DNA from: Amphiscolops sp. MND2022
Lineage: Eukaryota
Assembly (NCBI GenBank): GCA_964187785.1
Contig: OZ076409.1
Span: 75,146,001 to 75,210,000, forward strand
Length of the DNA stretch: 64,000 bases
Direction of reading: 5' to 3'
The position numbers were made by a program, and so were the translations under genes. The notes under the pieces were generated by a model. It was not told the DNA's origin. It worked only from the letters and a program-made list of their open reading frames with translations, and did no database searches. Positions 1 through 64,000 of this stretch are shown piece after piece; within the stretch, counting starts at the first letter, position 1, and each line of letters opens with the position of its first letter.

Positions 1-851
1 CCACACGATTTGGCTGAAATTTGGCACACGTACCCCCCTCGGCACGGTGAAGATGATTTCCTACTGACGTTTTTCCCGCTAAACATTTTTTGTTGACCAA
101 AATAACGGTTTTTGGGGTAAAATTTTCAACTTTTTTTAAATTTCATCTTATATCTCGCCGCGGGTACACGCTAGCGCTTCCAAACCTTGCTGACGAAAGT
201 TTGCAAACTGTCTCAGGAATGCTGTGTGAAATTTTCAGCTCAATCGGACTCAAACTCAGGGAGATATAGCGTTTTTCCGGAGCGGGGGGGTTTCATTTTT
301 CTAACGGTCCAGCTTATCTTAGCCATTTTTTCGAAAATGTACTCGCCTAAAGACCTCCCCTGGCCGGTTTTATTCCCAGAAAAACCATTTGGCCCTAAAT
401 ACGGAGTTTCAGCGTTCCAGCATTCCCGGGCGAAAAGTTGTGGGACTTAGAAAAGTTCAAAAATTTTCAAAAAAAATTTTTTCCGTTATTTGGGCCCCCA
501 AAGTGGGGGAAAAGACCCCCCAAACAGTAAGGCAAGTGAATGCATGTGCAAAGCCCTTGTTTAGAGGAGAAAAATGCCGTTTAGAACGTCTTTTTATCTT
601 GGCTCAACGTTGACTTATGACGTTTTGAAGGTGATGTTTGGAGGTGTAAAGCACGTGAATAGTAAACGTTATGAGTATTTATCTGATCTGAAAGCCATTG
701 AGATGCAATATGGTTTGCTCAAAACGTAATTCATGGCAGTTTGGCAATCAATCAACACCCTTTGTTGTCGTTTGACATACTTTTTTGTTGTTATAATAAA
801 AAATTTTGTGTATTTATTCATTTTTTTCTCATCAAATAACTTGAAACAGTT

Positions 852-896
852 GAGTACATTCCATCCCCCCCTTCCGGGGGAGATGAGAATGTACTC
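852..896 (+). other. Internal imperfect hairpin ~250 bp upstream of the terminal hairpin (representative copy)
   Basis: GAGTACATT-C-CATC-CCCCC..GGGGG-A-GATG-AG-AATGTACTC recurs in the 1.28-kb units and, in diverged form, in the 2.18-kb units. Confidence 0.8.
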
Positions 897-1102
897 GCAA
901 AAAGCACTGAACTACGGCCCTTACCTTCCCGAGCTACGCAGTATAAGGATTACATATTGGTTCCGACATTTTCATAGAGTTAAATCTTGGTAATCTGTCT
1001 GGATATGCAGAAAAACCAGCACGTGCTTTTTTATACCAAGTTGCTCACAACGACATTTATTTTATATCAACGCCCCCATATTTATCAACGCCCCCCGTCC
1101 GT

Positions 1103-1122
1103 GGGCATGCCGAGGCATGCCC
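1103..1122 (+). other. 3' subterminal hairpin (representative copy)
   Basis: GGGCATGCC-GA-GGCATGCCC is a perfect 9-bp inverted repeat 39 nt before CTAG (1162-1165). It precedes 27 of the 32 junctions. Confidence 0.92.
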
Positions 1123-4100
1123 TTCGACGACGTATACCAAAATATGTTCGAGCGCGTTAGCCTAGGTGCCGGGATTTCTATTCGATAAAGTATGTTGCGC
1201 GTGTGGGTAGGGTCCCTGGCGCGCTCTTGGGTATGGTGTTCACCAGCTAGGAAATAGGGGTCGATTTTTCGGGATCTCCTAAACTAGCCACACGATTTGG
1301 CTGAAATTTGGCACACGTACCCCCCTCGGCATGGTGAAGATGATTCCCTACTAGCGTTTTGCTCGCAAAATTTTTTTTGTTGTCCAAAATAACGGTTTTT
1401 GGGGGAAAATTTTGAATTTTTTTTAAATTTTATCTTATATCTCGCCAACGGTTTACGCTAGCGCTTCAAAACCCTGCTAAAGAAAGCTTGCAAACTGTCT
1501 CAGGAATGCGGTGTGAAATTTTCAGCTCAATCGGACTCAAACTCGGGGAGATATAGCGTTTTTCCGGAGCGGGGGGGTTTCATTTTTCTAACGGTCCAGC
1601 TTATCTTTGCCATTTTTTCGAAAATGCACTCGCCTAAAGGCCTCCCCTGGCCGGTTTTATTCCCAGCAAAACCATTTGGCCCTAAATACGGAGTTTCAGC
1701 GTTCCAGCATTCCCGGGCGAAAAGTTGTGGGACTTAGAAAAGTTCAAAAATTTTCAAAAAATTTTTTTTCCGTTTTCCGCCCTCCCCCCCTAGGGGAAAA
1801 GACCCCCCAACCAGTAATTTGAGTGAATTCATGTGGAAAGGCCTTGTTTAGAGGAGAAAAATGCCGTTTAGAACGTCTTTTTATCTTGGCTCAACGTTGA
1901 TTTATGACGTTTTGAAGGTGATGTTTGGAGGTGTAAAGCACGTGAATAGTAAACGTTATGAGTATTTATCTGATCTGAAAGCCATTGAGATGAATATGGT
2001 TTGCTCAAAACGTAATTCATGGCAGTTTGGCAATCAATCAACACCCTTTGTTGTCGTTTGACATACTTTTTTGTTGTTATAATAAAAAATTTTGTGTATT
2101 TATTCATTTTTTTCTCATCAAATAACTTGAAACAGTTGAGTACATTCCATCCCCCCCTTCCGGGGGAGATGAGAATGTACTCGCAAAAAGCACCGAACTA
2201 CGGCCCTTACCTTCCCGAGCTACGCAGTATAAGGATTACATGATGGTTCCGACATTTTCATAGAGTTAAATCTTGGTAATCTGTCTGGATATGCAGAAAA
2301 ACCAGCACGTGCTTTTTTATACCAAGTTGCTTACAACGACAATTATTTTATATCAACGCCCCCATATTTATCAACGCCCCCCGTCCGTGGGCATGCCGAG
2401 GCATGCCCTTCGACGACGTATACCAAGATATACATCGAGCGCGTTAGCCTAGGTGCCAATCCCCCCGGGATGCCACAGCTTCGAGGGCGGGGTAGGGCCC
2501 CCTGCCCGAGTCCAATACCAACGGCGCTAAACTTCGCGCCAGAAACTTAAGGCGATATAGGATTCTAGAGGCGATCTCGAAAACGGCCCTATAGAATTGG
2601 CTCAAAATTTGCATACGGCTTCCTCTAGCGATTCTAAGAACTTTTCCCTACTACCGTTTTGCCCAAAAAAATTTTTTTGTTGACTTATAGACAATTTTAG
2701 GTGCCGAAAATGGCGTTTTTTCGAAAATTTTTTTTTCAAGAGCCCATATCTCGCTCCCAGGTGCTCGGAGCGGGTCGCATGTGGACGTCGATATTGCTAG
2801 GCACTTCGTAAGGAGTCCGTAGACAAATTTTCGTACAGATCGGATGAAAATTGACTTAGTAATAAAAAACTTTGATTTGCATTTTTTCGAAAATTTATGA
2901 AATCCCAGTGTATCTCTGCCGTTTTTTGCCCAGATTTTTTTCCAGGACCTCTCCTAAAGGCCTCCCCTGGCCGGTTTACCTCCCAGAAAAACCATTTGGC
3001 CCTTTTGCCGCAGTTTCAGCGTTCCAGGATTCCGCGGGTAAAAGATAAATGACTTAGAATTTTTTCGAAAAATTTTCAAAATTTTTTTTTCAAATTCAGG
3101 CCTCCCAAAGTCAGGAAACGTCCACACAACTAGTATTGCAAGTGAATGCATGTGGAAAGTGCTCGAATAGACGAGAAAAATGAGCTATTATAAACCTCTG
3201 TAGCTCAACCTGACGTTGACTTATGACAATTTTAGTGTGAGCTTGCTATGTGAGAAAAAAATTCAAAAATTGAAAATCGAAGCTAAGTCTCATCCAAAAC
3301 TCATCGGAATACGTTCAATCCATCCCAAAGCGGTTTAATTCCAGCTATATAGTGCGCCAACACCATTCAGGGTCGTTTGACCCATTTTTATAACTTTTGA
3401 CACCGTCTTATCCATCCGAAAGTTCGAAACAGTTAAGTACATTCCATCTCCCCTCCGTGGGAGATGGTAATGTACTCGCAAAAAGCCAAGGTCCTACCGC
3501 CCTGTTCTATCCGGCGTTGCACCAGAAATGCAGTAGCATGAGCTCCAGGTCGTTTGCAGTAGCCTTTACGGGTGTTGTGACTATGCATTACAAGTCTAAC
3601 TATGTTACTGAACGTGAAAAATTTGTTTCACTCCAAAATTTTTTTCAACTATTTTATGTCATCAATAAAGATATATCCATGCATTTACTACTACCTACCC
3701 CATCACCCGCCCCCTCCACTATCTGTTCAACCGTACACGTCTAGGTGCCCAAATCCATCGATTTACCTTCACTTTGAGGGCGGGGTAGGGCCCCCGACCG
3801 GCTCCTCAGGCTTTAGACTGGCAACTTTAAGCCATTGTGCAAAATGGAAGCGATTTTCTAAACGGCCCATACGATTTGGCTGAAATTTTGCATACGGCTT
3901 CCTCTAGCGATTCTAAGAACTAATCCCTACTGGCGTTTTGCCCGGAAAAATCAAAAAGTGGGTCAAAATCTTAGTTTTTTGGTCGAAAAATGGCGTTTTT
4001 TTGGAAAAAAATTTTTTAAGAGCCCATATCTCGCTCCCAGGTGCTCGGAGCGGGTCGCATGTGGACGTTGATATTGCTGGGCACTTCGTAAGGAGTCCGT

Positions 4101-7100
4101 AGACAAATTTTGGTACAGATCGGATGAAAATTGATAGAGTAATAGCCGCCGATTTGGCGCATTTTTTCGCAAATTTTCGAAAACCTAGTCTATCTCTGCC
4201 GTTTTTTGCCCAGATTTTTTTCCAGGACCTCTCCTAAAGGCCTCCCCTGGCCGGTTTACCTCCCAGAAAAACCATTTGGCCCTTTTGCCGCAGTTTCAGC
4301 GTTCCAGGATTCCCCGGGTAAAAGTAAAATGTCTTAGAATTTTTTCGAAAAATTTTCAAAAAAATTTTTTTTCAACTTCAGGCCTCCCAAAGTCAAAAAA
4401 CGTCCACACAACTAGTATTGCAAGTGGATGCATGTGGAAAGTGCTCGAATAGACGAGAAAAATGAGCTATTATAAACCTCTGTAGCTTAACCTGACGTTG
4501 ACTTATGACAATTTTAGTGTGAGCTTGCTATGTGAGAAAAAAATTCGAAAATTGAAAATTGAAGCTAAGTCGCATCCAAAACTCATCGGAATGGGTTCAA
4601 TCCATCCCAAAGCGGTTTAATTCCAGCTATATAGTGCACCAACACCATTGAAGAACATTTGATCCATATATAAAAGTTTTGACACCGTCTTATCCATTTG
4701 AAAGTTCGAAACAGTTAAGTACATTCCATCTCCCCTCCGTGGGAGATGGTAATGTACTCGCAAAAAGCCAAGTACTACCGCCCTATTCTACCCGGATTGG
4801 TGCTAGCAATGCAGTAGCGTGAGCTCCAGGTTGTTTGCGGTAGCCTTTACGGGTGTTGTGACTATGTATTACAAATCTAACTATGTTACTGAACGTGAAA
4901 AAATTGTTTCACTCCAAAATTTTTTCCAACCATTTTATGTCATCAATAAAGATATATCCATCCATTTACTACTACCTACCCCATCACCCGCCCCCTCCAC
5001 TATCTGTTCAACCGTACACGTCTAGGTGCCGGGATTTCTATTCGATAAAGTATGTTGCGCGTGTGGGTAGGGTCCCTGGCGCGCTCTTGGGTATGGTGTT
5101 CACCAGCTAGGAAATAGGGGTCGATTTTTCGGGATCTCCTAAACTAGCCACACGATTTGGCTGAAATTTGGCACACGTACCCCCCTCGGCACGGTGAAGA
5201 TGATTTCCTACTGACGTTTTTCCCGCAAAATTTTTTTTGTTGTCCAAAATAACGGTTTTTGGGGTAAAATTTTGAATTTTTTTTAAATTTCATCTTATAT
5301 CTCGCCAACGGTTTACGCTAGCGCTTCAAAACCCTGCTAAAGAAAGTTTGCAAACTGTCTCAGGAATGCTGTGTGAAATTTTCAGCTCAATCGGACTCAA
5401 ACTCAGGGAGATATAGCGTTTTTCCGGAGCGGGGGGGTTTCATTTTTCTAACGGTCCAGCTTATCTTAGCCATTTTTTCGAAAATGTAATCGCCTAAAGG
5501 CCTCCCCTGGCCGGTTTTATTCCCAGCAAAACCATTTGGCCCTAAATACGGAGTTTCAGCGTTCTAGCATTCCCGGGCGAAAAGTTTTGGGACTTAGAAA
5601 ATTTCAAAAATTTTCAAAAAATTTTTTTTCCGTTTTCCGCCATCCCCCCCTAGGGGAAAAGACCCCCCAACCAGTAATTTGAGTGAATTCATGTGGAAAG
5701 GCCATGTTTAGAGGAGAAAAATTTCGTTTAAATCGTCTTTTTATCTTTATTCAACGTTGACTTATGACGTTTTGAAGGTGATGTTTGGAGGTGTGAAGCA
5801 CGTGAAAAGTAAACGTTATGAGTATTTATCTGATCTGAAAGCCATTGAGATGCAACCTGTTTTGCTCAAAACGTAATTCATATCAGTTTGGTAGTCAAAC
5901 AACACCCTTTGTTGTCATTTGACATCTTTTTTTGTTGATATAAGAAAAAATTTCGTGTATTTATTCATTTTTTTCTCATCAAATAACTTGAAACAGTTGA
6001 GTACATTCCATCCCCCCTTCACGGGGGAGATGAGAATGTACTCGCAAAAAGCTCCGAACTACGGCCCTTACCTTCCTGAGCTACGCAGTATAAAGATTGC
6101 ATATTGGTTCCGACATTTTGATAGAGTTATATCTTGGTAATCTGTCTGGGTATGCAGAAAAACCAGCACGTGCTTTTTTATACCAAGTTGCTCACAACGA
6201 CATTTAATTTATATCAACGCCCCCATATTTATCAACGCCCCCCGTCCGTGGGCATGCCGAGGCATGCCCTTCGACGACGTATACCAAAATATGTTCGAGC
6301 GCGTTAGCCTAGGTGCCGGGATTTCTATTCGTTCGAGTATGTGGCGCGTGTGGGTAGGGCCCCTGGCGCGCTCTTGTGTTTCGGGTTTTCCTACTCCTAA
6401 ACCGCGTTCAGATTTTCGGGATCTCGTAAACTAGCCATACGATTTGGCTGAAATTTGGCACACAGCTCCGTTGGAACATTGTAAGAACAAATCCCTACTG
6501 ACGTTTTGCCCGCTAAACATTTTTTGTTGGTCAAAAATGCGATTTTCCGACAAAATTTTTGACTTTTTTTCACTTTTCAGTCTATATCTCGCCACAGGGT
6601 TACGCTAGCTACCCTAAACCCTGCTAATTATAATTTGCAATCTGTCTCAGGAATGCGGTGTGAAATTTTCAGGTCAATCGGACTTAAACTCAGCGAGTTA
6701 GAGCGATTTTTTAGGTGCATTTTTTGACATTTTTTGCATTTGCCGATTTATCTCTGCCGTTTTTTGCCAAAATTTTTTTTGAGACACTCTCCTAAAGACC
6801 TCCCCTGGCCGGTTTACCTCCCAGCAAAACCATTTGGCCCTAAATACGAAGTTTTAGCGTTCTAGCATTCCCGGGCGAAAAGTTGTGGAACTTAGAATAA
6901 TTTTTTGGAAACGCAAAATGTGTAAAGTCAACTTCAGGCCTCCCAAAGTCAAGGAACTTCCACACAACTAGGATTGCAAGTGGATGCATGTGGAAAGTAC
7001 TGGGATAGACGAGAAAAATGAGCTATAGAACAACTCTGTAGCTTAACCTGACGTTGACTTATGATGTTTTGAATGTGTGCTTGCTAAGGGGTCCGAAATT

Positions 7101-10100
7101 GAAAATTTTTAAAGAAAATTAATATCGTCAAAAATTCATCGGAATGCCTGCAATATACAGTAGAGCGTGTTCAATTGTAGCTGACTAATGCATCAACGCT
7201 GTTCAAGGTCTTTTAACTCAGTTTCAAAATTTTTTACACTGTATTATCCATCCGAGAGTTCGAAACAGTTGAGTACATTCCATCTCCCTCCCGAGGGAGA
7301 TGAGAATGTACTCGCTAAAGTCCAGATACCACAACCCATATTTGTTTCTCTGCGACGCAAATCTTAGATAGTGCACGTAACTACCGGTCTTTTGACTGAA
7401 ATTTGTATTTACATTGACGTGACATATGCTGAACGTTCGGTTCTTACAACATACGCATGACTAACGTCAACGCCACATACTGTTACCAACGCCCACCGTC
7501 CGTGGGCATGCCGAGGCATGCCCTTCGACGACGTATGCCAAATACCTTTGAACGACGCGCACTCTCCCGCTAGGTGCCGGGATTTTCTATTCGTTTGGGG
7601 AAGATGCGCGCTGTTGGGGAGGGTCCCGGGCGCGCTCAGGTGTTTGTGGTTTTCCAACTTTGGAATCAGCACCCGCTGGGAACGATCTCGAGAACTATCC
7701 ATACGATTTGGCTGAAATTTTGCATGTGGCTCCCAATGGACATTGTAAGAACAAATCCCTACTGGCGTTTTGCTGGGAAAAATCAAAATGTTGGTCAAAA
7801 ATGCGATTTTCCGACGAAATTTTTGACTTTTTTTTCTTTGACGGTCTATATCTCGCCACAGGGTCACGCTATCTACCCTAAACCCTGCTAATTATAATTT
7901 GCAAACTGTCTCAGGAATGCGGTGTGAATTTTTCAGGTCGATCGGACTAAAATTCAGCGACTTAGAGCGTTTTTTAGGTGCATTTTTTGACATTTTTTGC
8001 GTTTGCTGATTTATCTCTGCCGTTTTTTGCCAAAATTTTTTCTGAGACACTCTCCTAAAGACCTCCCCTGGCCGGTTTACCTCCCAGCAAAACCATTTGG
8101 CCCTAAATACGAAGTTTCAGCGTTCTAGCATTCCCGGGCGAAAAGTTGTGGGACTTAGAAAAAAAATTTGGAAACGCAAAATGTGTAAAGTCAACTTCAG
8201 GCCTCCCAAAGTCAAGAAACTTCCACACAACTAGGATTGCAAGTGAATGCATGTGGAAAGTACTCGAATGGGCGAGGAAAATGAGCTATAGAACAGCTCT
8301 GTAGCCTAACTTGACGTTGACTTATGACAATTTTAGTGTGAGCCTGCTAAGTGAGAAAAAAATTCAAAATTGAAAACCGAAGCTAAGTCTTATCCAAAAC
8401 TCATCGGAACACGTTCAGTCCCACCCAGAGCGGTTTAAATCCAGGTTTCTAGTGCAGCAGCACCATTCAAGACCATTCGACCCATTTTTATAAGTTTTGA
8501 CACCGTAATATTCATACGAGAGCACAAAACAGTTGAGTACATTCCATCTCCCTTTCGGGGGAGATGAGAATGTACTCGCTAAAGTCCAGGTACTCTAGTC
8601 TATATTTGTTTTTATGCGGCGCTCTTTATACTAGTGCGCACACGTATTAATCTTTTAACTGAATTTTCTTTTGACTGTACTTTGACTTTGACTTGACATA
8701 ATGGACGTTATGTCCTTAAATCACGCACATGACTAACGTCAACGCCCCATCCTTGCATCAACGCCCACCGTCCGTGGGCATGCCGAGGCATGCCCTTCGA
8801 CGACGTATGCCAAAGATATTCCCGAGCGCGTTAGCCTAGGTGCCAAAACCCAATGGTTTGCCAAACACTTCGAGGGCGGGGTAGGGCCCCCAGCCCGAGT
8901 CAAAAGTCGAAGACAAACAACTTAAGGCGATTGCTGGGATCTCCTATCGATTTTCTAAACGAGCCATACGATTTGGCTGAAATTTTGCACACGGCTTCCT
9001 ATAACAATCCTAAGAACTAATCCCTACTGGCGTTTTGCCCGGAAAAATCAAAAAATGGGTCAAAATCTTAGTTTTTTGGTCAAAAAATGGCGTTTTTTGG
9101 AAAATTTTTTTTAAGAGCCAATATCTCGCTCCACAGGCCCCGGATCAAAAAGTGTACAATTGTTCGCGTGCTAGGCACTTCATGAACTGTCCGTAGACAA
9201 ATTTTCGTCCAGATCGGATAAAAATTGACTGAGTAATAAAAAACTTTGAAAGTGATTTTGACGACATTTTTCGAAAACCTAGTCTATCTCTGCCGTTTTT
9301 TGCCCAGATTTTTTTCCAGGACCTCTCCCAAAGGCCTCCCCTGGCCGGTTGACCTCCCAGAAAAACCATTTGGCCCTTTTGCCGCAGTTTCAGCGTTCCA
9401 GGATTCCTCGGGTAAAAGATAAATGACTTAGAATTTTTCAAAAAAAATTCAAAAAAAAATTTTTTTTCTTCAAACCTTCCAAAGTCAAGAAACGTCCACA
9501 CAACTAGTATTGCAAGTGAATGCATGTGGAAAGTGCTCGAATAGACGAGAAAAATGAGCTATTATAAACCTCTGTAGCTCAACCTGACGTTGACTTATGA
9601 CAATTTTAGTGTGAGCTTGCTATGTGAGAAAAAATTTCAAAAATTGAAAATCGAGCTAAGTCTCATCCAAAACTCATCGGAATACGTTCAATCCACCCTA
9701 AAGCGGTTTAATTCCAGTTACTAAGTGCAGCAACACCATTCAAGGTCATTTAACCCATATTTATAATTTTTGACACCGTCTTATCCATTTGAAAGTTCGA
9801 AACAGTTGAGTACATTCCATCTCCCCTACGTGGGAGATGGTAATGTACTCGCAAAAAGCCAAGGTCCTACCGCCCTATTCTAACCGGCGTTGCATCAGAA
9901 ATGCAGTAGCATGAGCTCCAGGTTGTTTGCAGTAGCCTTTACGTATGTTGTGACTATGTATTACAATTCTAACTCTGTTACTAAACATTAAAAAATTGTT
10001 TCAATCTCAAATTTTTTTTTCAACCTTAGTATGTCACCAATAAACATATATCCATCTTTCCGACTACAACCACCCTACCACCCGGCCCCTTGTCCACTGT

Positions 10101-17751: not shown

Positions 17752-18820
17752 TATTACATCTGCGCATTGGTCGTACGGTCGATATTGAGCGTAAAATACG
17801 GTCTTCGAAACAATATGTGGCCATCGTCGATCAATTTCTACGTGTAAGTATCGAATTTGCCCATATGGTAAAATATAAGAATAGAGGGAATGGGTTTTTC
17901 AAAATCCGGCTCATCAGAAGTTAGCTTGCGGCGTTATGCTGAAGGCCCTTCTGATGATGCTATGTCCCCCCTTTTTTAGTGGGTAACCTATGCCCAAATT
18001 TTTTTCAAGCAAATTTTTCCAGCATTTTTGTTTTTTGAGAGTCTTAACCATAATAAGCAACTGATACATGTTTGTGAAATAATATTATTTTCTGAATTTG
18101 TTTTTTGTTGAAAGTTGTTAGTAGAATCTGAATTGTCTTTCCTTGTAAAACTTATGGTATTATATGAGTTTTTAACTGATGTTCTTGAGAATGAATTCGA
18201 GCAATAAAAGACTTGAAACCTCTTGTACTGTATGTTTGATGTATGTTTATTTTGTATTGAGAGTCAAGTAACAAAAGTCAAGTAGCGGAGACTATTACAT
18301 CTGCGCATTGGTCGTACGGTCATTATTAATCATAAAATACGCTCATTGAGAAAATGCGTGATCATCGTCGTTCAATTTCTACGTGTATTTATAATATCTA
18401 CCTATATGTTACATTATAATAATTGGAGGTGATGGGTTTTACAAAATCCGGCTCATCAGAAGTTAGCTTGCGGCGTTATGCTGAAGGCCCTTCTGATGAT
18501 GCTATGTCCCCTCTTTTTTAGTGGGTAACCTATGCCCAAATTTTTTTCAAGCAAATTTTTCCAGCATTTTTGTTTTTTGAGAGTCTTAACCATAATAAGC
18601 AACTGATACATGTTTGTGAAATAATATTATTTTTTGAATTTGGTTTTTGTTGAAAGTTGTTAGTATAATCAGACGTGTCTTTCATTGTAAAACCTTTGAT
18701 ATTATATGAGTTTGTACCTGATGTTCTTGAGATTGAATTCCACCAATAAAAGACTTGAAAACTCTTGTACTGTATGTTTGATGTATGTTTATTTTGTACT
18801 GAGAGTCAAGTAGCAAAAGT
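17752..18820 (+). repeat. Two-copy direct repeat, period ~541 bp, upstream of RepHel
   Basis: TATTACATCTGCGCATTGGTCGTACGGTC starts at 17752 and 18293. Both copies end in GAGAGTCAAGTA(A/G)CAAAAGT. Confidence 0.92.
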
Positions 18821-27904: not shown

Positions 27905-28034
27905 AAATATAAAAAATTTCCACTTTTACACAAACTGCCATGTTTGGACAAAAAATTTTTACAATGAAATAATTCTGGCTAATACTTTATAAGCATAAAT
28001 ATATAACTTTCTAATTTAACTAAATTGTTTGCAG

Positions 28035-52059: not shown

Positions 52060-52336
52060 GTGGTCGGGGTCGTTTTCCCCATTGATTTTGCCGGCGCGGG
52101 AGATGGGTCCTGAAGCCGGCCCCTAGTACCAATCGAGCATATGAGGAAACAGCAAGTGTTAATCACGATCTCGAAAACTACCCATACGAATTGACTGAAA
52201 TTTGGCACACAGCTGCATGATCAAATTCTAAGAACTTTTTCCTGCTGACGTTTTGCGGGGAAATTTGTATATGTTGACTTTTGGTCAAAAAACCGGATAT
52301 AACGTCGAAAATGAACGTTATATCCGAATTGTTGTA

Positions 52337-55300
52337 ATAACTTTTTTCCAGGGCATCCTAGCGATTTTGGTTGCTCCTACGGTGCGTTGCAGCATCTGAA
52401 AATACATCTGCTGACAAATTTTGGTAGCAATCGGATCACCCCCCGCCGAGATAGAGGGGTACCCCCCTCCGATTTTACCCCGAAAATTTGGGAAAATGCC
52501 AATTTTGAGCATGAAGCCGTAAATTTAGCGTGCCGGTACCCCCCTAAAAAATTGTTGGGCGTAAAAAATTACAGCCGATAGCAAGTATGCTTGTTACCCC
52601 CCTACCCCCCTGAGACCGGAAATGACATTTTTTTGTACTTTCAGACCGGAAATCTAAATTTTTACAAATTCAGGCCACCCAAAGTCGCGAAACCTCCACA
52701 CAACTAGGATTGCGAGTGAATGCATGTGGAAAGCCCTTGTTTCAAGGAGAAAAATGCCGTTTAGAACGACTTTTTATCTTAATTTGACGTTGACTTATGA
52801 TATTTTGAAGGTGAGATTGGAGTGAGTGAACTACTAACTTTTGTCTAAACACAGATTTATCGTCAAGTCGAAATTCAAAAATCAGCTTTTGAACCGCTAA
52901 AAACTACTTCGATGCAACCAGTGGGGCACAAGATATTCGAAAACACGAATTGGATTGGTACAAGTGGCTTCAATATCATATGGGCAGCGATAAGAAGTTA
53001 TTCATAAAAAAACTTATCAATTGAAGTAAACATCTCGGAGGCCTGGAATCACAGTGAAAAGTTACTTCAATAAAAATTTACTCGTTTCTGTCAATCACTG
53101 TGTACACAAAACCCGTAGGGTAAGTTTCAGCACTAAGAAGAGATTTTTGAAGAAATCGGACTGCTCAATGTGTGACTTTTTACCATTTGACGTTATTTTG
53201 TTGCGTTTCTTATGTCTATTTTGCGTTTCTTTCGTCATAACTTTTTTCCAGGGTTTCATAGCCATTTTTGTTGCTCCTATGTTGCGTTGCAGCATCTGAA
53301 AATACGTCTGCTGACAAATTTTGGTTGCAATCGGATCACCCCCCGCCGAGATAGAAGGGTACCCCCCTCCGATTTGACCCCGAAAATATGGGAAAATGCC
53401 AATTTTCAGCATGAAGCCGTGGGTTTAGCGTGCGCGTACCCTGCTAAAAAATTGTTGGCCGTAAAAGACTACAGCCGATAGCAGATATGCTTGTTACCCC
53501 CCAACCCCCTTGAGACCGGAAATGACATTTCTTTTGTACTTTCAGACCGGAAATCTAAATTTTTACAAATTCAGGCCACCCAAAGTCGAGAAACCTCCAC
53601 ACAACTAGGATTGCAAGTGAATGCATGTGGAAAGCCCTTGTTTCAAGGAGAAATATGCCGTTTAGAACGACTTTTTATCTTAACTTGACGTTGACTTATG
53701 ATATTTTGAAGGTGAGATTGGAGTGTGTGAAGTACTAAGTTTTGTCTAAACACAGATTTATGGTCAAGTCGAAATTCAGAAATCAGCTTTTGAACCGCTA
53801 AAAACCACTTCGATGCAACCAGTGGGGCACAAAATATTCGAAAACACGAATGGGGTTGGTACAAGTGGCTTCAATATCATATGAGCAGCGATAAGACGTT
53901 ATTCATAAAAAAACTTATTATTTGTAGTAAACATCTCGGAAGCCTGCAATCACAGTGAAAAGTGATTTCAATAAAAATTTTACTCGTTTCTGTCAATCAC
54001 AATGTACACAGAATCTGTAGGGTAAGTTTCAGCACTAAAATGAGATTTTTGAAGAAATCGGACTGCTCAATGTGTGACTTTTTACCATTTGACGTTATTT
54101 TGTTGCGTTTCTTATGTCTATTTTGCGTTTCTTTCGTCATAACTTTTTTCCAGGACATCATAGCCATTTTTGTTGCACCTATGTTGCGTTGCAGCATCTG
54201 AAAATACGTCTGCTGACAAATATTGGTTGCAATCGGATCACCCCCCGCCGAGATAGAAGGGTACCCCCCTCCGATTTGACTCCGAAAATTTGGGAAAAAG
54301 CCACTTTTGAGCATGAAGCCGTGGATTTAGCGTGCGTGTACCCTGCTAAAAAATTGTTGGGCGTATTAAATTACAGCCGATAGCAGATATGCCGGTTACC
54401 CCCTACCCCCTTGAGACCGGAAATGACGTTTCTTTTGTACTTTCAGACCGGAAATCTAAGTTTTTACAAATTCAGGCCACCCAAAGTCGAGAAACCTCCA
54501 CACAACTAGAATTGCAAGTGAATGCATGTGGAAAGCCCTTGTTTCAAGGAGAAATATGCCGTTTAGAACGAATTTTTATCTCAACTTGACGTTGACTAAT
54601 GATATTCTGAAGGTGAGATTGGAGTGTGTGAAGTACTAAGTTTTGTCTAAACACAGATTTATCGTCAGGTCGAAATACAAAAATCAGCTTTTGAACCGCT
54701 AAAAACTACTTCGATGCAACCAGTGGGGCACAAGATATTCGAAAACACGAATGGGGTTGGTACAAGTGGCTTCAATATCATATGGGCAGCGATAAGAAGT
54801 TATTCATGAAAAAACTTATCAATTGAAGTAAACATCTCGTAGGCCTGGAATCACAGTGAAAAGTGATTTCAATTAAAATTTACTCGTTTCTGTCAATCAC
54901 TATGTACACAGAACCCGTAGGGTAAGTTTCAGCACTAAAATGAGATTTTTGTAGAAATCGGACTGCTCAATGTGTGACTTTTTACCATTTGACGTTATTT
55001 TGTTGCGTTTCTTATGTCTATTTTGCGTTTCTTTCGTCATTACTTTTTTCCAGGACATCATAGCCATTTTTGTTGCTCCTATGTTGCGTTGCAGCATCTG
55101 AAAATACGTCTGCTGACAAATTTTGGTTGCAATCGGATCATCCCCCGCCGAGATAGAAGGGTACCCCCCTCCGATTTGACCCCAAAAATTTGGGAAAATG
55201 CTAATTTTGAGCATGAAGCCGTGGGTTTAGCGTGCGTGTACCCTGCTAAAAAATTGTCGGGCGTATTAAGTTACAGCCGATAGCAGATATGCTTGTTACC

Positions 55301-56775
55301 CCACTACCCCCTTGAGACCGGAAATGACCTTTATTTTGTACTTTCAGACCGGGAATCTAAATTTTTACAAATTCAGGCCACCCAAAGTCGAGAAACCTCC
55401 ACACAACTAGGATTGCAAGTGAATGCATGTGGAAAGCCCTTGTTTCAAGGAGAAATTTACCGTTTAGATTGACTTTTTATCTCAACTTGACGTTGACTTA
55501 TGATATTTTGAATGTGAGATTGGAGTGTGTGAAGTACTAAGTTTTGTCTAAACACAGATTTATCGTCAAGTCGAAATTCAGAAATCAGCTTTTGAACCGC
55601 TAAAAACTACTTCGATGCAACCAGTGGGGCACAAGATATTCGAAAACACGAATGGGATTGGTACAAGTGGCTTCAATATCATATGAGCAGCGATAAGACG
55701 TTATTCATAAAAAAACTTATCAATTGAAGTAAACATCTCGGAGGCCTGGAATCACAGTGAAAAGTGATTTCAATAAAAATTTACTCGTTTCTGTCAATCA
55801 CTATGTACACAGAACCCGTAGGGTAAGTTTCAGCACTAAAATGAGATTTTTGAAGAAATCGGACTGCTCAATGTGTGACTTTTTACCATTTGACGTTATT
55901 TTGTTGCGTTTCTTATGGCTATTTTGCGTTTCTTTCGTCATAATTTTTTTCCAGGACATCATAGCCATTTTTGTTGCCCCTATGTTGCGTTGCAGCATCT
56001 GAAAATACGTCTGCTGACAAATTTTGGTTGCAATCGGATCACCCCCCGCCGAGATAGAAGGGTACCCCCCTCTGATTTTACACCCCAAATTTGTAAAAAT
56101 GCCAATTTTGAGCATGAAGCTGTGGATTTAGCGTGTCCGTACCCCTCTGAAAATTTGTCGGGCGTTATAAGTTACAGCTGATAACATGTATGTTTTTGAC
56201 CCCCTACCCCCATGAGACCGGAAATGACATTTTTTATGTACTTTCAGACCGGAAATCAACATTTTTACAGATTCAAGCCACCCAAAGTCAAGAAACGTCC
56301 ACACAACTAGGATTGCAAGTGAATGCATGTGGAAAGCCCTTGTTTCAGGGAGAAAAATCCCGTTTAGAACGTCGTTTTATCTTAACCTGACGTTGAGTTA
56401 TGTTGTTTTGAAGGTGCGATTGGGGTGTGTGAAGTACCAAATATAGTCTGAAACACCCATTTTTCGTGAAGTCAATTTTCGAAATTCGGCTTTTGAAGCA
56501 CAAATATTCACTCTGACGTAACCAGTAGGGCCCATGATACTCGAAAACACGAATGGTACTGGTGCCAATGATTCCAATAGCATATGAGCAGCGATAAAAC
56601 ATTATTCATAGCAAAATTTCTCAATTGAAGTAAACATCTCGCAATCCTGGGATCACAGTGAAATGTAAATTCATCAAAAATTTACTCATTTTTGTCAATC
56701 ACTATGTGCACAGAGTGCGTAGGGGAAGTTCCAGCACTATAATGATGTTTTTGAAGGTATCGGGTTGCTCAAGGG
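52337..56775 (+). repeat. About five tandem copies of a ~900-bp repeat
   Basis: GTTGCAGCATCTGAAAATAC recurs at about 52387, 53287, 54188, 55088 and 55989. The last copy is more diverged and the boundaries are approximate. Confidence 0.92.
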
Positions 56776-58380
56776 GTGGTATTAGACATTTTTTTCCTTA
56801 ATTCTACTGTATTTTCCAAAACTTTTAGCCCATTATCTGGAAAAACTAACTTGACAAAATACTTTCAATAACTTTATTCAAAGGTTACAATGTAGATGAA
56901 CCCTGTGGTTGATCAGAAACTCTCAGTTCTTTTGTTTTCCGAGATAATTCCCTACCCATGCGTTACATTTGTATCAGAAAAAAAGTAGAAGCTAAAAATT
57001 ACGCTATTTTGCCAAGATAGAATCGCAACGATTGTGCCTAAAAACACTTAAAATACTTCTAACGCCACCTTACGGACCCAAATTGATCGAAAATGCTATT
57101 CACAATGCTGACATGTGCTCTTTTTACGATCCAGCCTGCTCAATTTTTGCATATTTTACAAGTAGCTGTTGACTGAATCTTGTGATAGCCTTTCAAGTTG
57201 GCCTTGTGTCAACTTGGGAAGGCTATCACCACAAAAAACTCTGAACAAAGTCACTTCTCGTTCATGGGATAATGCTTTTGATAGTCGTTTTCGTGATTCT
57301 ATCCTACCGTTAGTACCTTTCATCAAGTCAGCTATCGATTACTTTGTCTTTGAGAAAAACCTATTAACTTGAAGACAATTTTCAATATTTTGTGACAAGA
57401 AATTACTATTAAAACACATTTTTTAAATCTAACCATTAAATACGATACCTTCAATTTTCTTTACCGTTATCAGGCCCACCCTACCCGTACGTCCTCGTAC
57501 CCCAACACAACAAAATCCCAAAGTCAACACCACACACTCGCATCAATGACCACAGTCCGTGAAGGTAATCACTTTTGATTACCAAGATACCAGAAACTGT
57601 TAACAAAATTTTGTTTTTCATGCACAAGAGTGAGCTGAAAGACGATTGAAAATAGAAAAAGATGATTCCACAACCTTTTATATCTTCCTATTTAAACTAA
57701 TGTGTTCCTGTTTAGCATCAGAACCAATACTGACGCAATCTCATTACCCGACGTCACACACCCTCATCAAGGCCCACCGTCCTTGGGCATGCCGAGGCAA
57801 ATATTTCAACAACATGTGCCAAGTGCACTTTATCGATGCCCGCGCTTATCTGTAAGACTTAGAAGTATCACAAGGTTTTTAAAAAGTTTTCAGCCTATCA
57901 GTGTCAGCATCCATCTATAAAAGGAGGATTGCAAGTGAATACATGTAGCACGCTGTTTAGTAGAGCTAAAAATGCTGTTGCAAATGTCTCTTTATCTTAC
58001 GTTGACAATGATGTATATTCTTTTGGTTGTGAAACTGGAACGGGGTATGAAATCGAAAGATGACAAAAGAGCTTCAGTTTCATATGAAAGGTATTGCCAT
58101 AAAAATAGTAGAAAACCTCAATACATGTTCGGTTGTTCTTCTGTAGTGAACACTTCTCTATCTTAAGACGACTTGTTACGCTACGGAACTACAAGTGTTA
58201 TGCATTTAAAGGGAAAAATTGAGAGTAGATAGCATATGGTTTCCTGGCACTCGCTAAAGTCAGGTGCTACGTCCAACATCTGTCTTCAGCCTATGTAAAA
58301 AAAAGGATTGCACATGGATACCTTTGTTTTATCTACCATCTCCTATTTTACACTGAATTGACATTCTGAATGTTCTGTCA

Positions 58381-58429
58381 TTACATTACCTTACTTTACT
58401 TTACTTTACTTTACATTACCTAACTTTAC
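58381..58429 (+). repeat. Short (TTTAC)n-like microsatellite
   Basis: TTACATTACCTTACTTTACTTTACTTTACTTTACATTACCTAACTTTAC lies just upstream of a terminal hairpin. Confidence 0.8.
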
Positions 58430-58551
58430 CACGATACAACTCTAACGTCAACGCCACACACTCTTATCAACGCCCACCGTCCGTAGGCATGCCGAGGCAT
58501 GCCTTTCGACGACGTATACCAAATCTCTTCCCCCGACGCCCGCGGTTCTTG

Positions 58552-61500
58552 GTGGTCAGTGCTGTTGCGTTCATTTTTTTCCGGCCGTGGGGGAGGGCCC
58601 CTCTGAGGCCGGTCATTTTTCAGGTAACAGCTTTCTTATACAAAAAAGCGGGAAAAAACCTCAGTGCTCAAATCCCAACCGTCAGAATGAGCTGAAATTT
58701 GGCATGTAGCTAGTGCATTGCAAATGATTAGGATGGGTTATAACGCTATGTTTGGCAAAATTGGTTTTGTTGCATTTTTTTTGTCATATAGGGCCAAAAA
58801 TGGCCTTTTTTGCGTATTTTTTGCTTGACTAGCTAATAACTCGCGTTGGGTTGGTACTAGCGATACGGGTGTGGGGTATGGAATTGAAAGATTACCAAGT
58901 ACCTTGCTGATGACGTTATTTGATTTCCGCTCACATCACCCCCCACGCCGGAAATGCCCAATTTGTCACTTCCGGTCGCTATTTTTGACTTTTTTGGATG
59001 GAGTTAAAACCCATTTCCGGTGTGAAGGAGTAGGTTGAGCGCTCCAACCACGATTTACTAAAAGTAGGTTTAGACAAAGTCCTTTCAAGAAAAAAGTAAT
59101 ATGAGCCCGTACCTATCACCCGCTCACCGGAAATAGGGGTCACGCCTCCTTTTTCTGTGTTGCAAAAGTGACATGTGCACATTTGTCCAACTCCGAAGCC
59201 CCGGAGCACCGTGGGACCCTTATACTTTCTAAACACCTATCCCACACGCTACCGGAAGTGACCGGAAGTTTCACCGGAAATGACATCCTTGGACCGGAAA
59301 TGGTCAAAAAATGACTTTTCAATGCAAAATAGACACATTTGGTGCGATTTTTAGGCAAAAAGCATAGTTCGTGAAACGCTTGTTGCAGTTGGAAGGGCCA
59401 TTGTTCAGCAAGAATGCGTACAGCATTACGTAGCACATCAAGTAGTTGATACTTTTTCGTCCATAATATCCTTAGGACCGGAAATGGCCATTTTTGAATC
59501 GGAAACTTCTTCAGCTTGATTTTTAACAGGTTTTTCCGCAATATTAGCGTAGGAATTGCTCGTCGGATGCTGTAGGTCTATTTTAAAACTAGCTAACTGC
59601 TTCTTAGAAATGTATTTCAGAAGTCCCAACCAATTCCAGAATACCGGAAATAAGAGTAATTGCCTCCTTTATGACCTTTGAATAATAAATTGTTAAAATC
59701 CGCATATTATTTTTTTCCACACTTGTTGCTGAGATTATATCTAAGCAATAACATGTGCTTGTCATGAAGTGCTGTAATGTGGGAGTTACGAATATTGCTA
59801 TTTAAGAGTATTACATACGTGAATATCCGCCGTAATAAAGATTTTTTAAAACAACCACTTTTGAAGTCCTATAGATTGTCCGCACACCCGAAACAATTCA
59901 AGTTTCTAGTTTCGATTTTAAGGCTTCCGCGACTATTTAGTTGAGATGATAGTTTTCACGTTCTCTGCAAAACGTGCATTTCATTGTGTTTTTGACATTT
60001 ATTGGGCTGTTTCACATTGTAATTCAAAACTAATTGATCATACAATTTGGAACAATTGAAAATTTTCAATTGAACATTAAATGTTTTAATAGTTTCTCTT
60101 TCGTTGAAGATACTATTTTGTGGCCATTAGAACAGGTTGAATTAGTTGAATAAGTAGCCAGTGCGATACATCGTTTAATACATAGCGTTTGACATCGGTT
60201 TTTTTGCGAACAAAGACAAGCATGATTTGTTGAAAGTTTTTACCATATCGCTTCAAATCGGGTGTGACAAACAAGGAATTTCTCGTTTTATGTGCTACTC
60301 CGAAAGCAACCTGAAAACGCAAATCGATCTATTGAATTATCGAGATGAAACTAAGCATTTCAAGTCTGGATTTCAATTTAATTCTATCACTCCGGTCTAT
60401 TTTTATGTTGCAAGAGTGATAAAGCGTGTTAGCAAGGTTAAACACATCGAACAATTTTAATAATAAAGCCTCCGGAAAGGGAACAAAAAATGAGTTTTCC
60501 TGTCAAAACTATGATAACCACGTACGAAACATCAAGTTTTTGTATTGTTCAATAGTCCAAAACGTGAATGAAGTTTTTAAATATCCAAGCGTTTCTAATC
60601 AAGCATGCGTTTCAAATGTCTGACAGGGCAGCATCGTTCTCAAAAAACATTGCTTTCAATGTGGTTTGATACCAGCAAAACGAACGTAGGCACAACCAGA
60701 TTCTCAAATTTCTTGCAAAACAGCCGATTTCTTTGAAAATCCTAATTGATTTCACAGGGTATATGGTGAAACCCTGTTGGATTCCAAAAATGAAAAGCTG
60801 ATTTCTTGGGTTTGCGAGATAAAAGACAACGGGAATCTGAAAGCAAGTCATCTCAATAAAATACCTGTTGCTCTTTAAACAAATGGATTTTAGTAGTGGA
60901 AATTTTTTCTCAGACACTTTCGATCAGAGAATGTTTGAGTCCTAACGTTCGAATCAGGTTGGTTTCAGGTGGCTCGAAGTGCCAGCTGAACCAACCTTTC
61001 AAATAAAGAAAAACCCCACATCTCCCTTCATGCCACGCTACCCCGTATAGCGTTTCAACTTGACAGAAGTTGGAACGTTTGATTTTGGCGTCGCTTGGGA
61101 TTGACACACCAGTGTTGATACTAAATTTGGCAAAGAGAAATCGCAGAAATGATTGTTTCTTTTTTTTCCCTTTGATTTAGTCTGTCGAGCGTACAAAGCA
61201 GTTTGGGAAACTAACTTGCATTTCCACTGAACGAAAAAAAGTAGTAGCCTTGCAAACTCCTGGAAGAAATTGAATCAGGTTTTCCTATTTGTGAGATCAG
61301 CTGTCACTCAATTATCAATTACTTTTTTAAAAATTTTTAGGAACAACTAACCTAACTCTGCTCGACTCTCTTGAATAATGCAACAATCGTTTACTGATCT
61401 GTACTCGTGAGAAAAAAATCAACTGCAGGTCCAAAAACAATCTATATATCTTTGGTTTATTCCGTGCAAAGCTTTTTTTCACACCATGTGACTCAACTAT

Positions 61501-64000
61501 AACATGTATGTAATGAAACCAATAACACCTTCAACTATCAACGCCCACCGTCCGTAGGCATGCCGAGGCATGCCTTTCGACGACGCGCGCCGGAAACAAT
61601 CTAACGGCGCCACCCGCTTCTGGGTGGTCAGTGCTGTTGCGTTCATTTTTTTCCGGCCGTGGGGGAGGGCCCCTCTGAGGCCGGTCATTTTTCAGGTAAC
61701 AGCTTTCTTATACAAAAAAGCGGGAAAAAACCTCAGTGCTCAAATCCCAACCGTCAGAATGAGCTGAAATTTGGCATGTAGCTAGCGCATTGCAAATGAT
61801 TAGGATGGGTTATAACGCTATGTTTGGCAAAATTGGTTTTGTTGCGTTTTTTTTGTCATATAGGGCTAAAAATGGCCTTTTTTGCGTATTTTTTGCTTGA
61901 CAAGCTAATAACTCGCGTTGGGTTGGTACTAGCGATACGGGTGTGGGGTATGGAATTGTAAGCTTACCAAGTACCTTGCTGATCACGTTATTTGATTTCC
62001 GCTCACATCACCCCACACGCCGGAAATGCCCAATTTGTCACTTCCGGTCGCAATTTTTGACTTTTTTGGATGGAGTCGAAGCCCATTTCCGATGTGAAGG
62101 AGTGGGTTGAGCGCTCTGACCACGATATACTAAAAGTAGGTTTAGACAAAGTCCTTTCAAGAAAAAAGTAATGTGAGCCCGTAACTATCACCCCCTCACC
62201 GGAAATAGGGGTCACGCCTCCTTTTTCTGTGCTGCAAAAGTGACATGTGCACATTTGTCCAACTCCGAAGCCCCGGAGCACCGTGGGACCCGTATACTTT
62301 CTAAACACCAATCCCACACGCTACCGGAAGTGACCGGAAGTTTCACCGGAAATGACATCCTTGGACCGGAAATGGTCAAAAAATGACTTTTTTAATGCAA
62401 AATAGACACAATTGGTGCGATTTTTAGGCAAAAAGCATAATTCGTGAAACGCTTGTTGCAGTTGGAAGGGCCATTGTTCAGCAAGAATGCGTACAGCATT
62501 ACGTAGCACATCAAGTAGTTGATTCTTTTTCGTCCATAATATCCATAGGACCGGAAATGGCCATTTTTGAATCGGAAACGTCTTCAGCTTGATTTTTAAC
62601 AGGTTTTTCCGCAATATTAGCGTAGGAATTGCTCGTCGGATGCTGTAGGTCTATTTCAAAACTAGCTGACTGCTTCTTAGAAATGTATTTCAGAAGTTCC
62701 AACTAATTCCAGATGACCGGAAATGGGAGTAATTGCCTCCTTTATGACCTTTGAAAGATAGATTGTTAAAATCCGCAAATTATTTTATTCCACAATTGTT
62801 GCTCAGGTTATATCTAAGCAATAACATCTGCTTGTTATGAAGTGCTGTAATGTGGGAGATACAAATATTGCTTTTTAATAGTTTTACATACGTGATATCC
62901 GCCGCAATAAGGATTTTTCAAACCAACCATTTTGAAGTCCTACTGGTGTTCCGCACACCCGAAGCTATTTAAGTTTCTAGTTTCGATTTTCAGGCTTCCG
63001 CGACTATTTAGTTGAGATGATAGTTTTCACGTTCTCTGCAAAACGGGCATTTCATTGTGTATTTGACATTTATTGGGCTGTTTCACATTGTATTTCAAAA
63101 CTAATTGATCATACAATTTGGAACAATTGAAAATTTTTAATTGAACAAAAAATGTTTTAATACTTTCTCTTTCGTTGAAGATACTCTTTTGTGGCCATTA
63201 GAACAGGTTGAATTAGTTGAATAAGTAACCAGTGCGATACATCGTTTAATACATAGCGTTTGACATCGGTTTTTTTCGCGAACAAAGACAAGCTTGATTT
63301 GTTGGAAGTTTTTACCATATCGCTTCAAATCGGGTGTGACAAACAATGAATTTCTCGTTTTAATTGCTACTTCGAAAGCAACCTGAAAACGCAAATCGAT
63401 CTATTGAATTATGGAGATGAAACTAAGCATTTCAAGTCTGGGTTTCAATTTAATTCTATCACTCCGGACTATTTTCATGTCGCAAGAGTGATAAAGGGTG
63501 TTAGCAAGGTTAAAAACATCGAACAATTTCAATAATAAAGCCTCCGGAAAAAGAAGAAAAAATGAGTTTTCCTGTCAAAACAATGATAACCACGTACGAA
63601 ACCTCAAGCTTTTGTATTGTTCAATAGTCCAAAACGTGAATGAAGTTTTTAAATATCCAAGAGTTTCTAATCAAGCATGCGTTTCAAATGTCTCACAGGG
63701 CAGCATCGTTTTCAAAAAACAGTGCTTTCAATATGGTTTCATACCAGCAAAACGAACGCAGGCAAAACCACATTCTCAAAATTTTTGCACAATAACCAAT
63801 TTCTGTGGAAATCCTGTTTGATTCCTCAGGGTATATGGTGAGAACCCTGTTGGGTTCCAAAGTTGATGAGCTGTTTTCTTGGGTTTGCGAGATAAGTTAC
63901 AACGGAAATCTGAAAGCAGGTCGTCTTAATAAAATACCTGTTGCTCTTCAAACGAATGGACTTAAGTAGTCGAAATTTATTCTCAGACACTTTCGATCAG
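58552..64000 (+). mobile_element. Two tandem copies of a divergent 3.07-kb unit (58552-61623 complete; 61624 to window end partial)
   Basis: Both have the head GTGGTCAGTGCTGTTGCG and colinear bodies. The first ends with the A/T-variant hairpin (61555-61574) and CTGG|GTG. Confidence 0.85.

Follow-up and report, generated by a model that had tools for sequence, protein, structure and literature searches.

The stretch of DNA considered here, 64,000 nucleotides of Amphiscolops sp. MND2022 on contig OZ076409.1 (called C1 in the following; the whole stretch is referred to as the window), is occupied by a head-to-tail array of units which begin with GTG and end with CTNG. One of the units codes for a predicted Helitron-like transposase, in which a Rep domain is combined with a helicase (RepHel). 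A contiguous array of 264 kb was analysed, containing 169 junctions and 168 units of 22 families at a 75% cut-off. The array was probably built mainly by a divergent Helitron-like rolling-circle group which prefers its own end-to-start junction as integration target. The features of the window are given in Table 1.

In the window, 32 junctions were identified, all on the plus strand, and neighbouring units adjoin directly. The precise junctions of one orientation and without spacer that had been described in an earlier note, made from the window alone, were thus borne out, and the pairings of tails and heads and the unit sizes quoted there match. Two readings are corrected: the head at 47693 is GTGGAGGTT, and the GTGGCCGTGTC heads begin at 10119, 33920 and 35203, one base after the positions given before. 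Thirty junctions read CTAG^GTG (the caret marks the cut), one reads CTTG^GTG (58551^58552) and one CTGG^GTG (61623^61624). CTAGGTG is found 30 times on the plus strand and 0 times on the minus strand of the window, compared to 3.0 ± 1.8 expected from 100 shuffles with a largest count of 8. The CTNGGTG strings at 21401 and 25619 were rejected as junctions, since they lie inside the long open reading frame (ORF) and lack the head motif. In a sample of 309 junctions, 274 were CTAG^GTG, 26 CTGG^GTG, 6 CTTG^GTG, 2 CTCG^GTG and 1 CTAG^GTC; for this sample, CTNGGT(G/C) with a head motif was required in all sequence fetched up to then, and a few of the junctions are edges to host DNA. A location of the true unit ends elsewhere was considered and rejected. 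Outside junctions, tails are followed by ATG or TTG and heads are preceded by A, which places the cut at CTNG^GTG. Six loci depart from the expected pattern of tail or head, and three of them (L013, L014 and L015) were chance matches.

Table 1. Features of the window and their positions (position 1 is the first letter of the window)
Feature	Positions	Strand	Remarks
Window	C1:75146001-75210000	+	Segment of head-to-tail GTG...CTNG array in a 1.07-Gb assembly; 31 whole units and 2 clipped at the window ends
Example junction CTAG^GTG	1162-1168	+	Cut between 1165 and 1166
Other head starts	2453, 3745, 5026, 6313, 7574, 8840, 10119, 11401, 12688, 13976, 15289, 16576, 28802, 30077, 31365, 32645	+	
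Head starts, continued	33920, 35203, 36434, 38610, 39999, 41287, 42575, 43864, 45150, 46406, 47693, 49880, 52060, 58552, 61624	+	
Example 3' subterminal hairpin	1103-1122	+	9-bp stem, 43-55 nt before the end
Example 5' subterminal hairpin	1197-1224	+	
Twelve non-autonomous units	1166-16575	+	About 1.26-1.31 kb; four related families
Autonomous element	16576-28801	+	12,226 bp
RepHel transposase ORF	19235-26284	+	2349 amino acids stop to stop; probable start Met 19265; no introns
HUH Rep core	22358-23161	+	Motif I at 22358, HIH (HUH motif) at 22625, YxxKY (two tyrosines) at 23138; collinear with Helraiser motifs
PIF1-type helicase (superfamily 1B)	24503-25615	+	Walker A at 24503, Walker B at 24755, late motif at 25592
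C-terminal GIY-YIG-like domain	25928-26150	+	End approximate
ORF2	26969-27904	+	311 amino acids; Met at 26978; predicted OB-fold protein
Fourteen non-autonomous units	28802-47692	+	Twelve measure about 1.23-1.29 kb, the other two 2176 bp (36434-38609) and 1389 bp (38610-39998)
Two units of about 2.18 kb	47693-52059	+	Each with a degenerate internal tail copy about 200-250 nt before the end
6492-bp unit ending with CTTG	52060-58551	+	Five internal repeats of about 900 bp, 84-92% alike
3.07-kb family ending with CTGG	58552-64000	+	Whole unit 58552-61623; from 61624 clipped by the window end

That one of the families encodes a candidate enzyme, as had been proposed, was confirmed by the finding of a RepHel protein of the HUH type with two tyrosines (Y2). 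In the ORF of the window, the Helitron_like_N (PF14214) and PIF1 (PF05970) domains were above the Pfam cut-off, and PIF1 structures were also matched. With a profile of 35 Rep sequences, Helraiser was matched at E 1.4e-4, the three motifs following each other in the same order, and for the predicted Rep fold (mean predicted local distance difference test, pLDDT, 76.9) the sole match under E 0.001 was the Helraiser structure 7LCC (E 7.3e-6). The full ORF by itself gave no match to Helraiser at E 0.01; a Helitron-like element (HLE) of the group HLE1 from the same genome matches Helraiser at 8.6e-193. The GIY-YIG-like domain of the window copy is probably inactive, because the Arg and His retained in its relatives are missing. 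For ORF2, the predicted fold (pLDDT 64.6) contains oligonucleotide/oligosaccharide-binding (OB) domains resembling the single-stranded DNA-binding domains of RPA, POT1, CST and MCM10 (Foldseek E 5e-5, Z up to 8.7), and homologues were aligned from five other autonomous elements. The HUH Rep with two tyrosines, the downstream PIF1 helicase and the oriented insertion without target-site duplication place the element, as judged from its sequence, in the Helitron-like superfamily.

The autonomous element was found in two further copies, 99.3% identical over exactly bases 1-12226 and with different neighbours. Five autonomous types recur in this way as whole elements (94.5-99.8% identical) among differing neighbours, and junctions were present on both sides in 10/10 autonomous copies fetched from 5 contigs. 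The autonomous elements of the array are in the range of 12-15 kb, and the genome contains dozens of uninterrupted transposase ORFs of 2300-2850 amino acids.

The way in which the array changes was revealed by a block of about 44 kb which is tandemly duplicated at C1:75.265-75.352 Mb. Across the 24 units which both copies share (32,608 bp), one substitution and three homopolymer gaps of one base each were found. In addition, nine blocks consisting of 11 whole units set the copies apart; six of these units are confined to one copy and the remaining five to the other. In 9/9 blocks, the breaks fall into a window of identity of 7-24 nt which contains the junction. Each extra unit shares a longer internal identical run (24-113 nt) with a neighbour, so that a homology-driven deletion would be expected to break there, yet the breaks are at the junctions. 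Breakpoints spread evenly along the units, which the earlier note had associated with ordinary unequal crossover, were not what was found. At one junction in the duplication, a different unit is present in each copy. One extra unit, present in just one copy, is 100% identical to the window unit 12688-13975, which lies 163 kb upstream, and another matches in 1046/1047 bases a unit at C1:3.61 Mb, 71.7 Mb away, where both neighbours differ. With 11 events over about 50 junctions compared to one substitution in about 65 kb, the rate per junction is in the order of 10^3-10^4 times the rate per base, with a wide interval.

The target was identified from natural empty sites. At C8:25,691,450-25,694,072, on another contig, a unit of family A is interrupted twice, by one whole unit of 1322 bp and another of 1288 bp, so that both its internal CTNG^GT sites are occupied. 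An intact A-family unit holds just two such sites, which are 13 nt apart, and the flanks at C8 are identical to the intact unit over 60/60, 13/13 and 60/60 positions, with nothing gained or lost. From this double insertion, CTNG^GT is established as the target, and it is clear that there is no target-site duplication; its absence had been claimed before, but the window by itself does not reveal it. Solo copies and the edges of small arrays are also found at host sites, with the left flanks CTTG (four times), CTAG and CTGG and a looser right side; the solo copies start with GTG.

The preference for junctions was apparent from the 491 copies of one tail, of which 482 are followed by GTG(C/G), 3 by a base other than G and 5 by GT and a base other than G, with one unaccounted for. 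Units lying mostly alone at unrelated sites are thus not the rule. From a crude count in 160 kb of mostly non-array sequence, host DNA holds about 10^6 CTNGGT and about 2x10^4 CTAGGTG sites (the latter from 3 counts), so that the clustering is not explained by the short motif. The preference for junctions is thus a strong one.

For the order of the units, 138 units were analysed after removal of the second duplication copy, using 5000 shuffles. Neighbours with at least 97% identity were found 4 times compared to 1.97 in the shuffles (p=0.13), and those with at least 99.5% once compared to 0.19; the view that the units are not rolling-circle concatemers was thereby upheld. Among 82 non-adjacent pairs with at least 98% identity, none shares a neighbour. 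Same-family neighbours were present in 49 of 137 adjacent pairs compared to 29.5 ± 3.6 after shuffling, a value reached in 0/5000 shuffles, so that tails and heads, contrary to what the earlier note had assumed, do not assort independently. Since near-identical neighbours are not in excess and same-family neighbours are, the order is neither that of a concatemer nor random. The extra units of the duplication are similar to the head that follows on the right, with a mean percentile of 0.81 (z=3.2, n=9), whereas no such similarity to the tail on the left was seen (0.50, n=9). When adjacency was modelled by logistic regression, similarity of heads and bodies had positive effects and that of tails a negative one. 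This suggests that the origin is the target.

The observed ends of the units, their target without duplication, the gain and loss of units exactly at junctions, their movement over long distances and the preference for junctions can be combined into the following model. RepHel would mobilise whole GTG...CTNG units, its own and, in trans, the non-autonomous ones; the boundaries of these units are seen, and the assignment of the enzyme is what we infer. Units are joined into CTNG^GT on one strand, without duplication or loss, and as each unit ends with CTNG and starts with GTG, each insertion leaves two new sites. Movement might proceed via a circular intermediate, with the chromosomal tail-head junction being treated as an origin. 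Because the chromosomal junction resembles that of the circle, the enzyme probably recognises the downstream head with its 5' hairpin as the origin. A nick at CTNG^G followed by strand exchange by the two tyrosines would be in line with the chemistry of Helraiser, TrwC and the Rep protein of adeno-associated virus (AAV) and with the bias to the head side; the likeness between target and terminal motif in IS91 points the same way. Rare insertions at bare CTNG^GT sites of the host would start new arrays, and block duplication, inversion and recombination between units would occasionally reshape them. A more far-reaching proposal, for which we see about even chances, is that the proteins belong to an undescribed deep RepHel(-GIY-YIG) clade of several animal phyla, in which the transposase would integrate site-specifically at its own origin junction. 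The families would share the arrays as a self-made and self-enlarging safe harbour in which like heads attract like units, and the turnover (about 10^3-10^4 times the per-base rate per junction) would be fast enough to record the history of insertions.

Several findings weigh against this model in its simple form. The breakpoint of the duplication lies inside units, where a chimeric unit with a 5-nt insert is present, and 43 of 104 small units contain a 60-column window which is best matched by another family (21 of them in the first window); the chimeric breakpoint and the mosaic units show that recombination is active as well. The 11 differences are not each polarisable, and precise excision would look alike for most of them; judged from the sequences, insertion is forced only by the site with two different units, the case at C8 and the solo copies. 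The test of head bias was based on n=9 and was run after the trend had been noticed, and for tails, too, a correlation with the neighbour on the right was seen (0.74). Several old copies, solo or at array edges, have flanks that deviate from the consensus (TTCA and TTTA on the left; ATG, TTG, TTC and GAC on the right). Solo copies are not negligible, with 6 isolated sites among the first 100 tail-hairpin sites listed. An ageing toward the 3' end was predicted for small arrays, and two edges fit this prediction, while one does not. Of the proposal that units are added singly by HUH-mediated transfer, it therefore stands that whole units change singly, occasionally by two, at CTNG^GT(G); insertion is not the sole process, and Rep is the presumed enzyme.

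Among the other explanations, the one that survives best, although we regard it as unlikely, is that the transposase reads only the short target CTNG^GT(G), and that arrays dominate because their chromatin is open or tolerant or because insertions into host DNA were purged, without a recognition of the head. It would account for the solo copies and array edges at host CTNG^GT sites and for the cryptic internal sites used at C8, and CTAG^GTG may be just the best version of the motif. However, host sites far outnumber junctions by the crude estimate given above, yet nearly all tails adjoin a head; about 50 junctions saw 11 events while 32.6 kb gained 1 substitution; among 280 units cut out of arrays, internal CTNG^GT sites were used at one locus only; and the extra units resemble the downstream head.

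Somewhat less likely still is a history of mostly precise Rep-mediated excision, in which concatemers were inserted, blocks were duplicated and whole units were then lost from junction to junction, as in the recombination between two oriT sites by relaxases. Loss explains most of the 11 differences equally well, a block duplication of about 44 kb is present and the families are regionalised along the array. The lack of an excess of near-identical neighbours and of shared neighbours among the 82 close pairs does not fit with this history, nor do the near-identical autonomous copies with unrelated neighbours, the double insertion inside the C8 unit and the twin units 71.7 Mb apart.

An ordinary turnover of satellite DNA, in which dead monomers derived from Helitrons would evolve through gene conversion and unequal crossover and the units with ORFs would be carried along as passengers, is very improbable. 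Mosaic units, heads or tails shared between families and a block duplication with internal breakpoints are in agreement with it, and Helitron-derived tandem arrays are described for cnidarians in the part of the literature covered (PMC11934779). It is contradicted by the location of 9/9 breakpoints at junctions despite longer internal homology, by the dozens of intact transposase ORFs and by the C8 double insertion. An assembly artefact, with reads from similar repeats stitched at a shared k-mer, is hardly credible: the near-perfect duplication could consist of two joined haplotypes, but its differences would then still be polymorphisms of whole units, host-flanked solo copies and small arrays have the same ends, the breakpoint of the duplication is marked by a chimeric unit with an insert of 5 nt, an independent metagenome contig has the same head, and an overlap of 7 nt is too short for an assembler to join reads.

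Integrons contain oriented arrays of mixed units which are added singly; these units carry genes as cargo and enter at a single attI site by the action of a tyrosine recombinase. In contrast, no tyrosine recombinase was matched in Pfam here, events occurred at nine sites in one block, and cargo ORFs are absent. Since any junction is used, cargo ORFs are lacking and the enzyme is not a tyrosine recombinase, the term integron-like chosen by the earlier note is loose.

In comparison to HLE1 elements, with Helraiser (PDB 7LCC) as the reference, the Rep(HUH, YxxKY)-PIF1 architecture and the absence of a target-site duplication are shared, as is a downstream accessory gene for single-stranded DNA binding, according to the passages covered (PMC11417382); a 3' hairpin is present in most families and CTAG at most ends. 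HLE1 elements start with TC, whereas 308 of the 309 junctions continue with GTG and one with GTC, and they insert between A and T instead of at CTNG^GT. Their hairpin lies 11 nt from the end compared to 43-55 nt here, and the 5' hairpin and the C-terminal GIY-YIG domain are additional. The CTRR end of HLE1 is matched by 275 CTAG and 26 CTGG ends, but not by the 6 CTTG and 2 CTCG ends of the 309, and the hairpin is absent from the B tails. In the parts of the studies covered, Helraiser was reported not to cluster near its donors (PMC4778049), unlike the units described here, its 5' end was found to be essential, and its transposase cleaves its own top-strand circle junctions (PMC4778049, PMC5876387). 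HLE2 elements (Helitron2 or Helentron) likewise contain hairpins at both ends, as far as described in the passages seen (PMC3627910), and an OTU domain is present in some relatives of the array proteins; they differ by a T start and a T^T target. Asymmetric terminal inverted repeats of the HLE2 type were not detected as long minus-strand matches between the ends of the main families, a search which did not extend to short repeats of 8-15 bp by family.

In a Rep and helicase tree of 20 rows, 14 array-type proteins, two HLE1 proteins and four HLE2 proteins with a DUF6570 domain formed three groups with long branches (Shimodaira-Hasegawa approximate likelihood ratio test 95-100). Nine of 29 proteins had been left out as fragments, for missing motifs or as redundant rows. 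As the references are few, with all HLE1 and HLE2 proteins from the own genome, and the tool flagged long branches, the separation of the array transposase from both the two HLE1 and the four HLE2 proteins indicates distance rather than a firm new clade. The Rep region had no BLAST match to HLE1, DUF6570 was not matched in the window ORF or in four relatives and was present in 4/4 HLE2 controls from the own genome, and no AP-endonuclease was matched in the window ORF or in the array-type relatives scanned. The predicted transposase is Helitron-like and appears to stand apart from the HLE1 and HLE2 sequences compared.

Tandem arrays of Helitrons in plant centromeres, bats, cnidarian subtelomeres and centromeric regions of Meloidogyne, and an HLE clade at Paramecium telomeres, are also clustered or head to tail and reach up to megabases. 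According to the parts of the sources covered, they are concatemers, degenerate or satellite-associated copies or insertions into telomeric repeats, whereas intact mixed units with a turnover of single units at exact junctions are found here. The literature covered in part deals with tandem arrays interpreted as concatemers, Fusarium elements sporadically inserted into themselves, degenerate clusters at subtelomeres or centromeres, the Paramecium clade that inserts at telomeres and HLEs left unclassified in 19 genomes (PMC11417382, bioRxiv 10.1101/2025.11.06.686955, PMC5148889, PMC10288648, PMC6049929, PMC4778049, PMC3627910, PMC6431247, PMC11934779, PMC13404089, PMC5876387, PMC6581046, PMC13181058). 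In these passages, neither GTG...CTNG elements nor a preferential insertion into the own junction is described; Repbase and most subscription journals were outside this scope, and the HELIANO supplements might hold the clade. Own-junction targeting is thus a behaviour for which no description was found, in a Helitron-like rolling-circle system.

The bacterial IS91 is a Y2 HUH rolling-circle transposon without target-site duplication, and its target CTTG and the similar motif CTCG at its terminal cleavage site follow the same logic of CTNG at both ends; it lacks a helicase, and neither own-junction preference nor mixed arrays are mentioned in the passages covered (PMC13181058). The closest mechanistic analogy for an origin as target would be the TrwC relaxase and AAV Rep, HUH proteins with a helicase for which a copy of the own origin, or a sequence mimicking it, serves as the site of DNA integration. 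These are proteins of plasmids and viruses and not transposases, and self-growing chromosomal arrays do not appear in the passages seen (PMC6049929). The telomeric arrays of HeT-A, TART and TAHRE in Drosophila also consist of oriented mixed units added singly (PMC6581046, covered in part), but these are retrotransposons added at chromosome ends, while any internal junction is an entry site here. Replitrons, with a Y1 Rep containing HUQ, direct terminal repeats and no helicase, as described in the part covered (PMC10288648), are unlike the Y2 protein with a helicase found here.

The choice of target and the entry into it are the least understood step of the Helitron cycle, and tandem arrays are usually ascribed to concatemer replication. 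As the transposases are young and intact, the ends and the target are defined and empty sites occur naturally, the integration step is here open to direct tests. If the origin is indeed the target, this would represent a eukaryotic counterpart of origin integration by TrwC and AAV Rep and a new route to megabase repeat domains without unequal crossover. The regeneration of the site by each insertion suggests a serial and scarless landing-pad integrase.

Relatives of the transposase comprise 177 representatives at E<=1e-30 and 439 at 1e-10. They are named from Myxine glutinosa and Styela clava (two clusters among 20 checked), and also from Hyalella azteca and Perkinsus olseni. Since a hagfish, a tunicate and an amphipod are among the organisms named, similar arrays may lie unrecognised in other assemblies, filed as unclassified satellite. 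The relative named from Perkinsus olseni (P0021) groups by its motifs with P0014 and P0024, and P0023 and P0042 contain an N-terminal OTU protease domain. A metagenome scan yielded 1 locus from 34 candidates, with only a 5' end present. In this contig (L082:250-520), where Rep is 33% identical, the element likewise starts at CTGG^GTG and has the hairpin of the head. In the viral collection, no relative of P0048 was found, and the pattern gave 8 single matches. The same genome also contains scattered ordinary HLE1 and DUF6570-positive HLE2 elements (L093-L113), some with JAB, OTU, UCH or AP-endonuclease domains.

The large array on C1 extends over about 6 Mb, from about 70.45-70.51 Mb to about 76.47-76.55 Mb, with the edges placed within about 90 kb. 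Five-kb probes were array in 11/11 cases between C1:71.45 and 76.05 Mb and in 0/9 cases outside 70.43-76.55 Mb, and array was detected at C1:70.51 and 76.47 Mb. The single orientation noted before holds for the window and the contiguous 264 kb, but not throughout the 6-Mb array, where 1/11 probes was inverted. Of the 129 Rep matches in the genome, 34 lie in C1:70.5-76.5 Mb, all 34/34 on the plus strand and 33-100% identical to the query. The core motif of the tail hairpin has 4949 exact copies in the genome, and smaller arrays are present elsewhere on C1 and on the contigs C2, C6, C8 and C10. Long domains with one dominant head type were seen at C1:71.45-73.3 Mb, 73.68 Mb and 3.58-3.63 Mb, and the orientation switches within or between arrays at C1:~23.977 Mb, C1:~76.05 Mb, C2:102.0-103.9 Mb and C3:2.4-3.9 Mb. 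Three pairs of 20-kb probes, taken as candidates for large duplications, were rejected as independent copies of the same autonomous elements.

Units start with GTG(C/G), followed at about +30 to +60 by a subterminal hairpin around GGG(T/G)AGGG(T/C)CC, the stem of which varies by family while the pairing is kept; the same structure is present in the unrelated metagenome contig. The 3' hairpin is common to most families, including the autonomous one, and absent from the B tail families. The folding of four whole junctions of the window gave z-scores of -0.3 to -1.5, none of them significant, and the hairpins are therefore proposed because of the pairing conserved across families and not because of folding energy. 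An Rfam scan gave 0 matches at the gathering threshold, Tandem Repeats Finder detected short repeats only, and in the ORF list of the window no small unit contains a plus-strand ORF of 150 amino acids.

The description of the families as very different in sequence and size was correct for the sizes; the families of about 1.28 kb are homologous over their full length with 53-98% identity. The 3.07-kb family has its termini alone in common with other families. The 12.2-kb unit matches the ~1.28-kb families over its initial ~800 bp and its terminal ~100 bp, as expected if these are its non-autonomous partners. A step of about 900 bp, the size of the repeats in the 6492-bp unit, also separates the units of 1.28, 2.18 and 3.07 kb. 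The length of the small units (window 1166-47692) is held at about 1230-1315 bp though the families are just 53-65% identical, which suggests a size constraint. Upstream of the transposase ORF, an internal duplication of about 530 bp with 90% identity was identified (window 17752-18820), and additional ORFs of about 220-275 amino acids are present in other autonomous families (L021:5362-6027, L026:5359-6015 and L033:5602-6426). A conserved internal inverted repeat (window ~2125-2210) is located about 250-320 nt before the end in 8/8 of the 1.28-kb families aligned.

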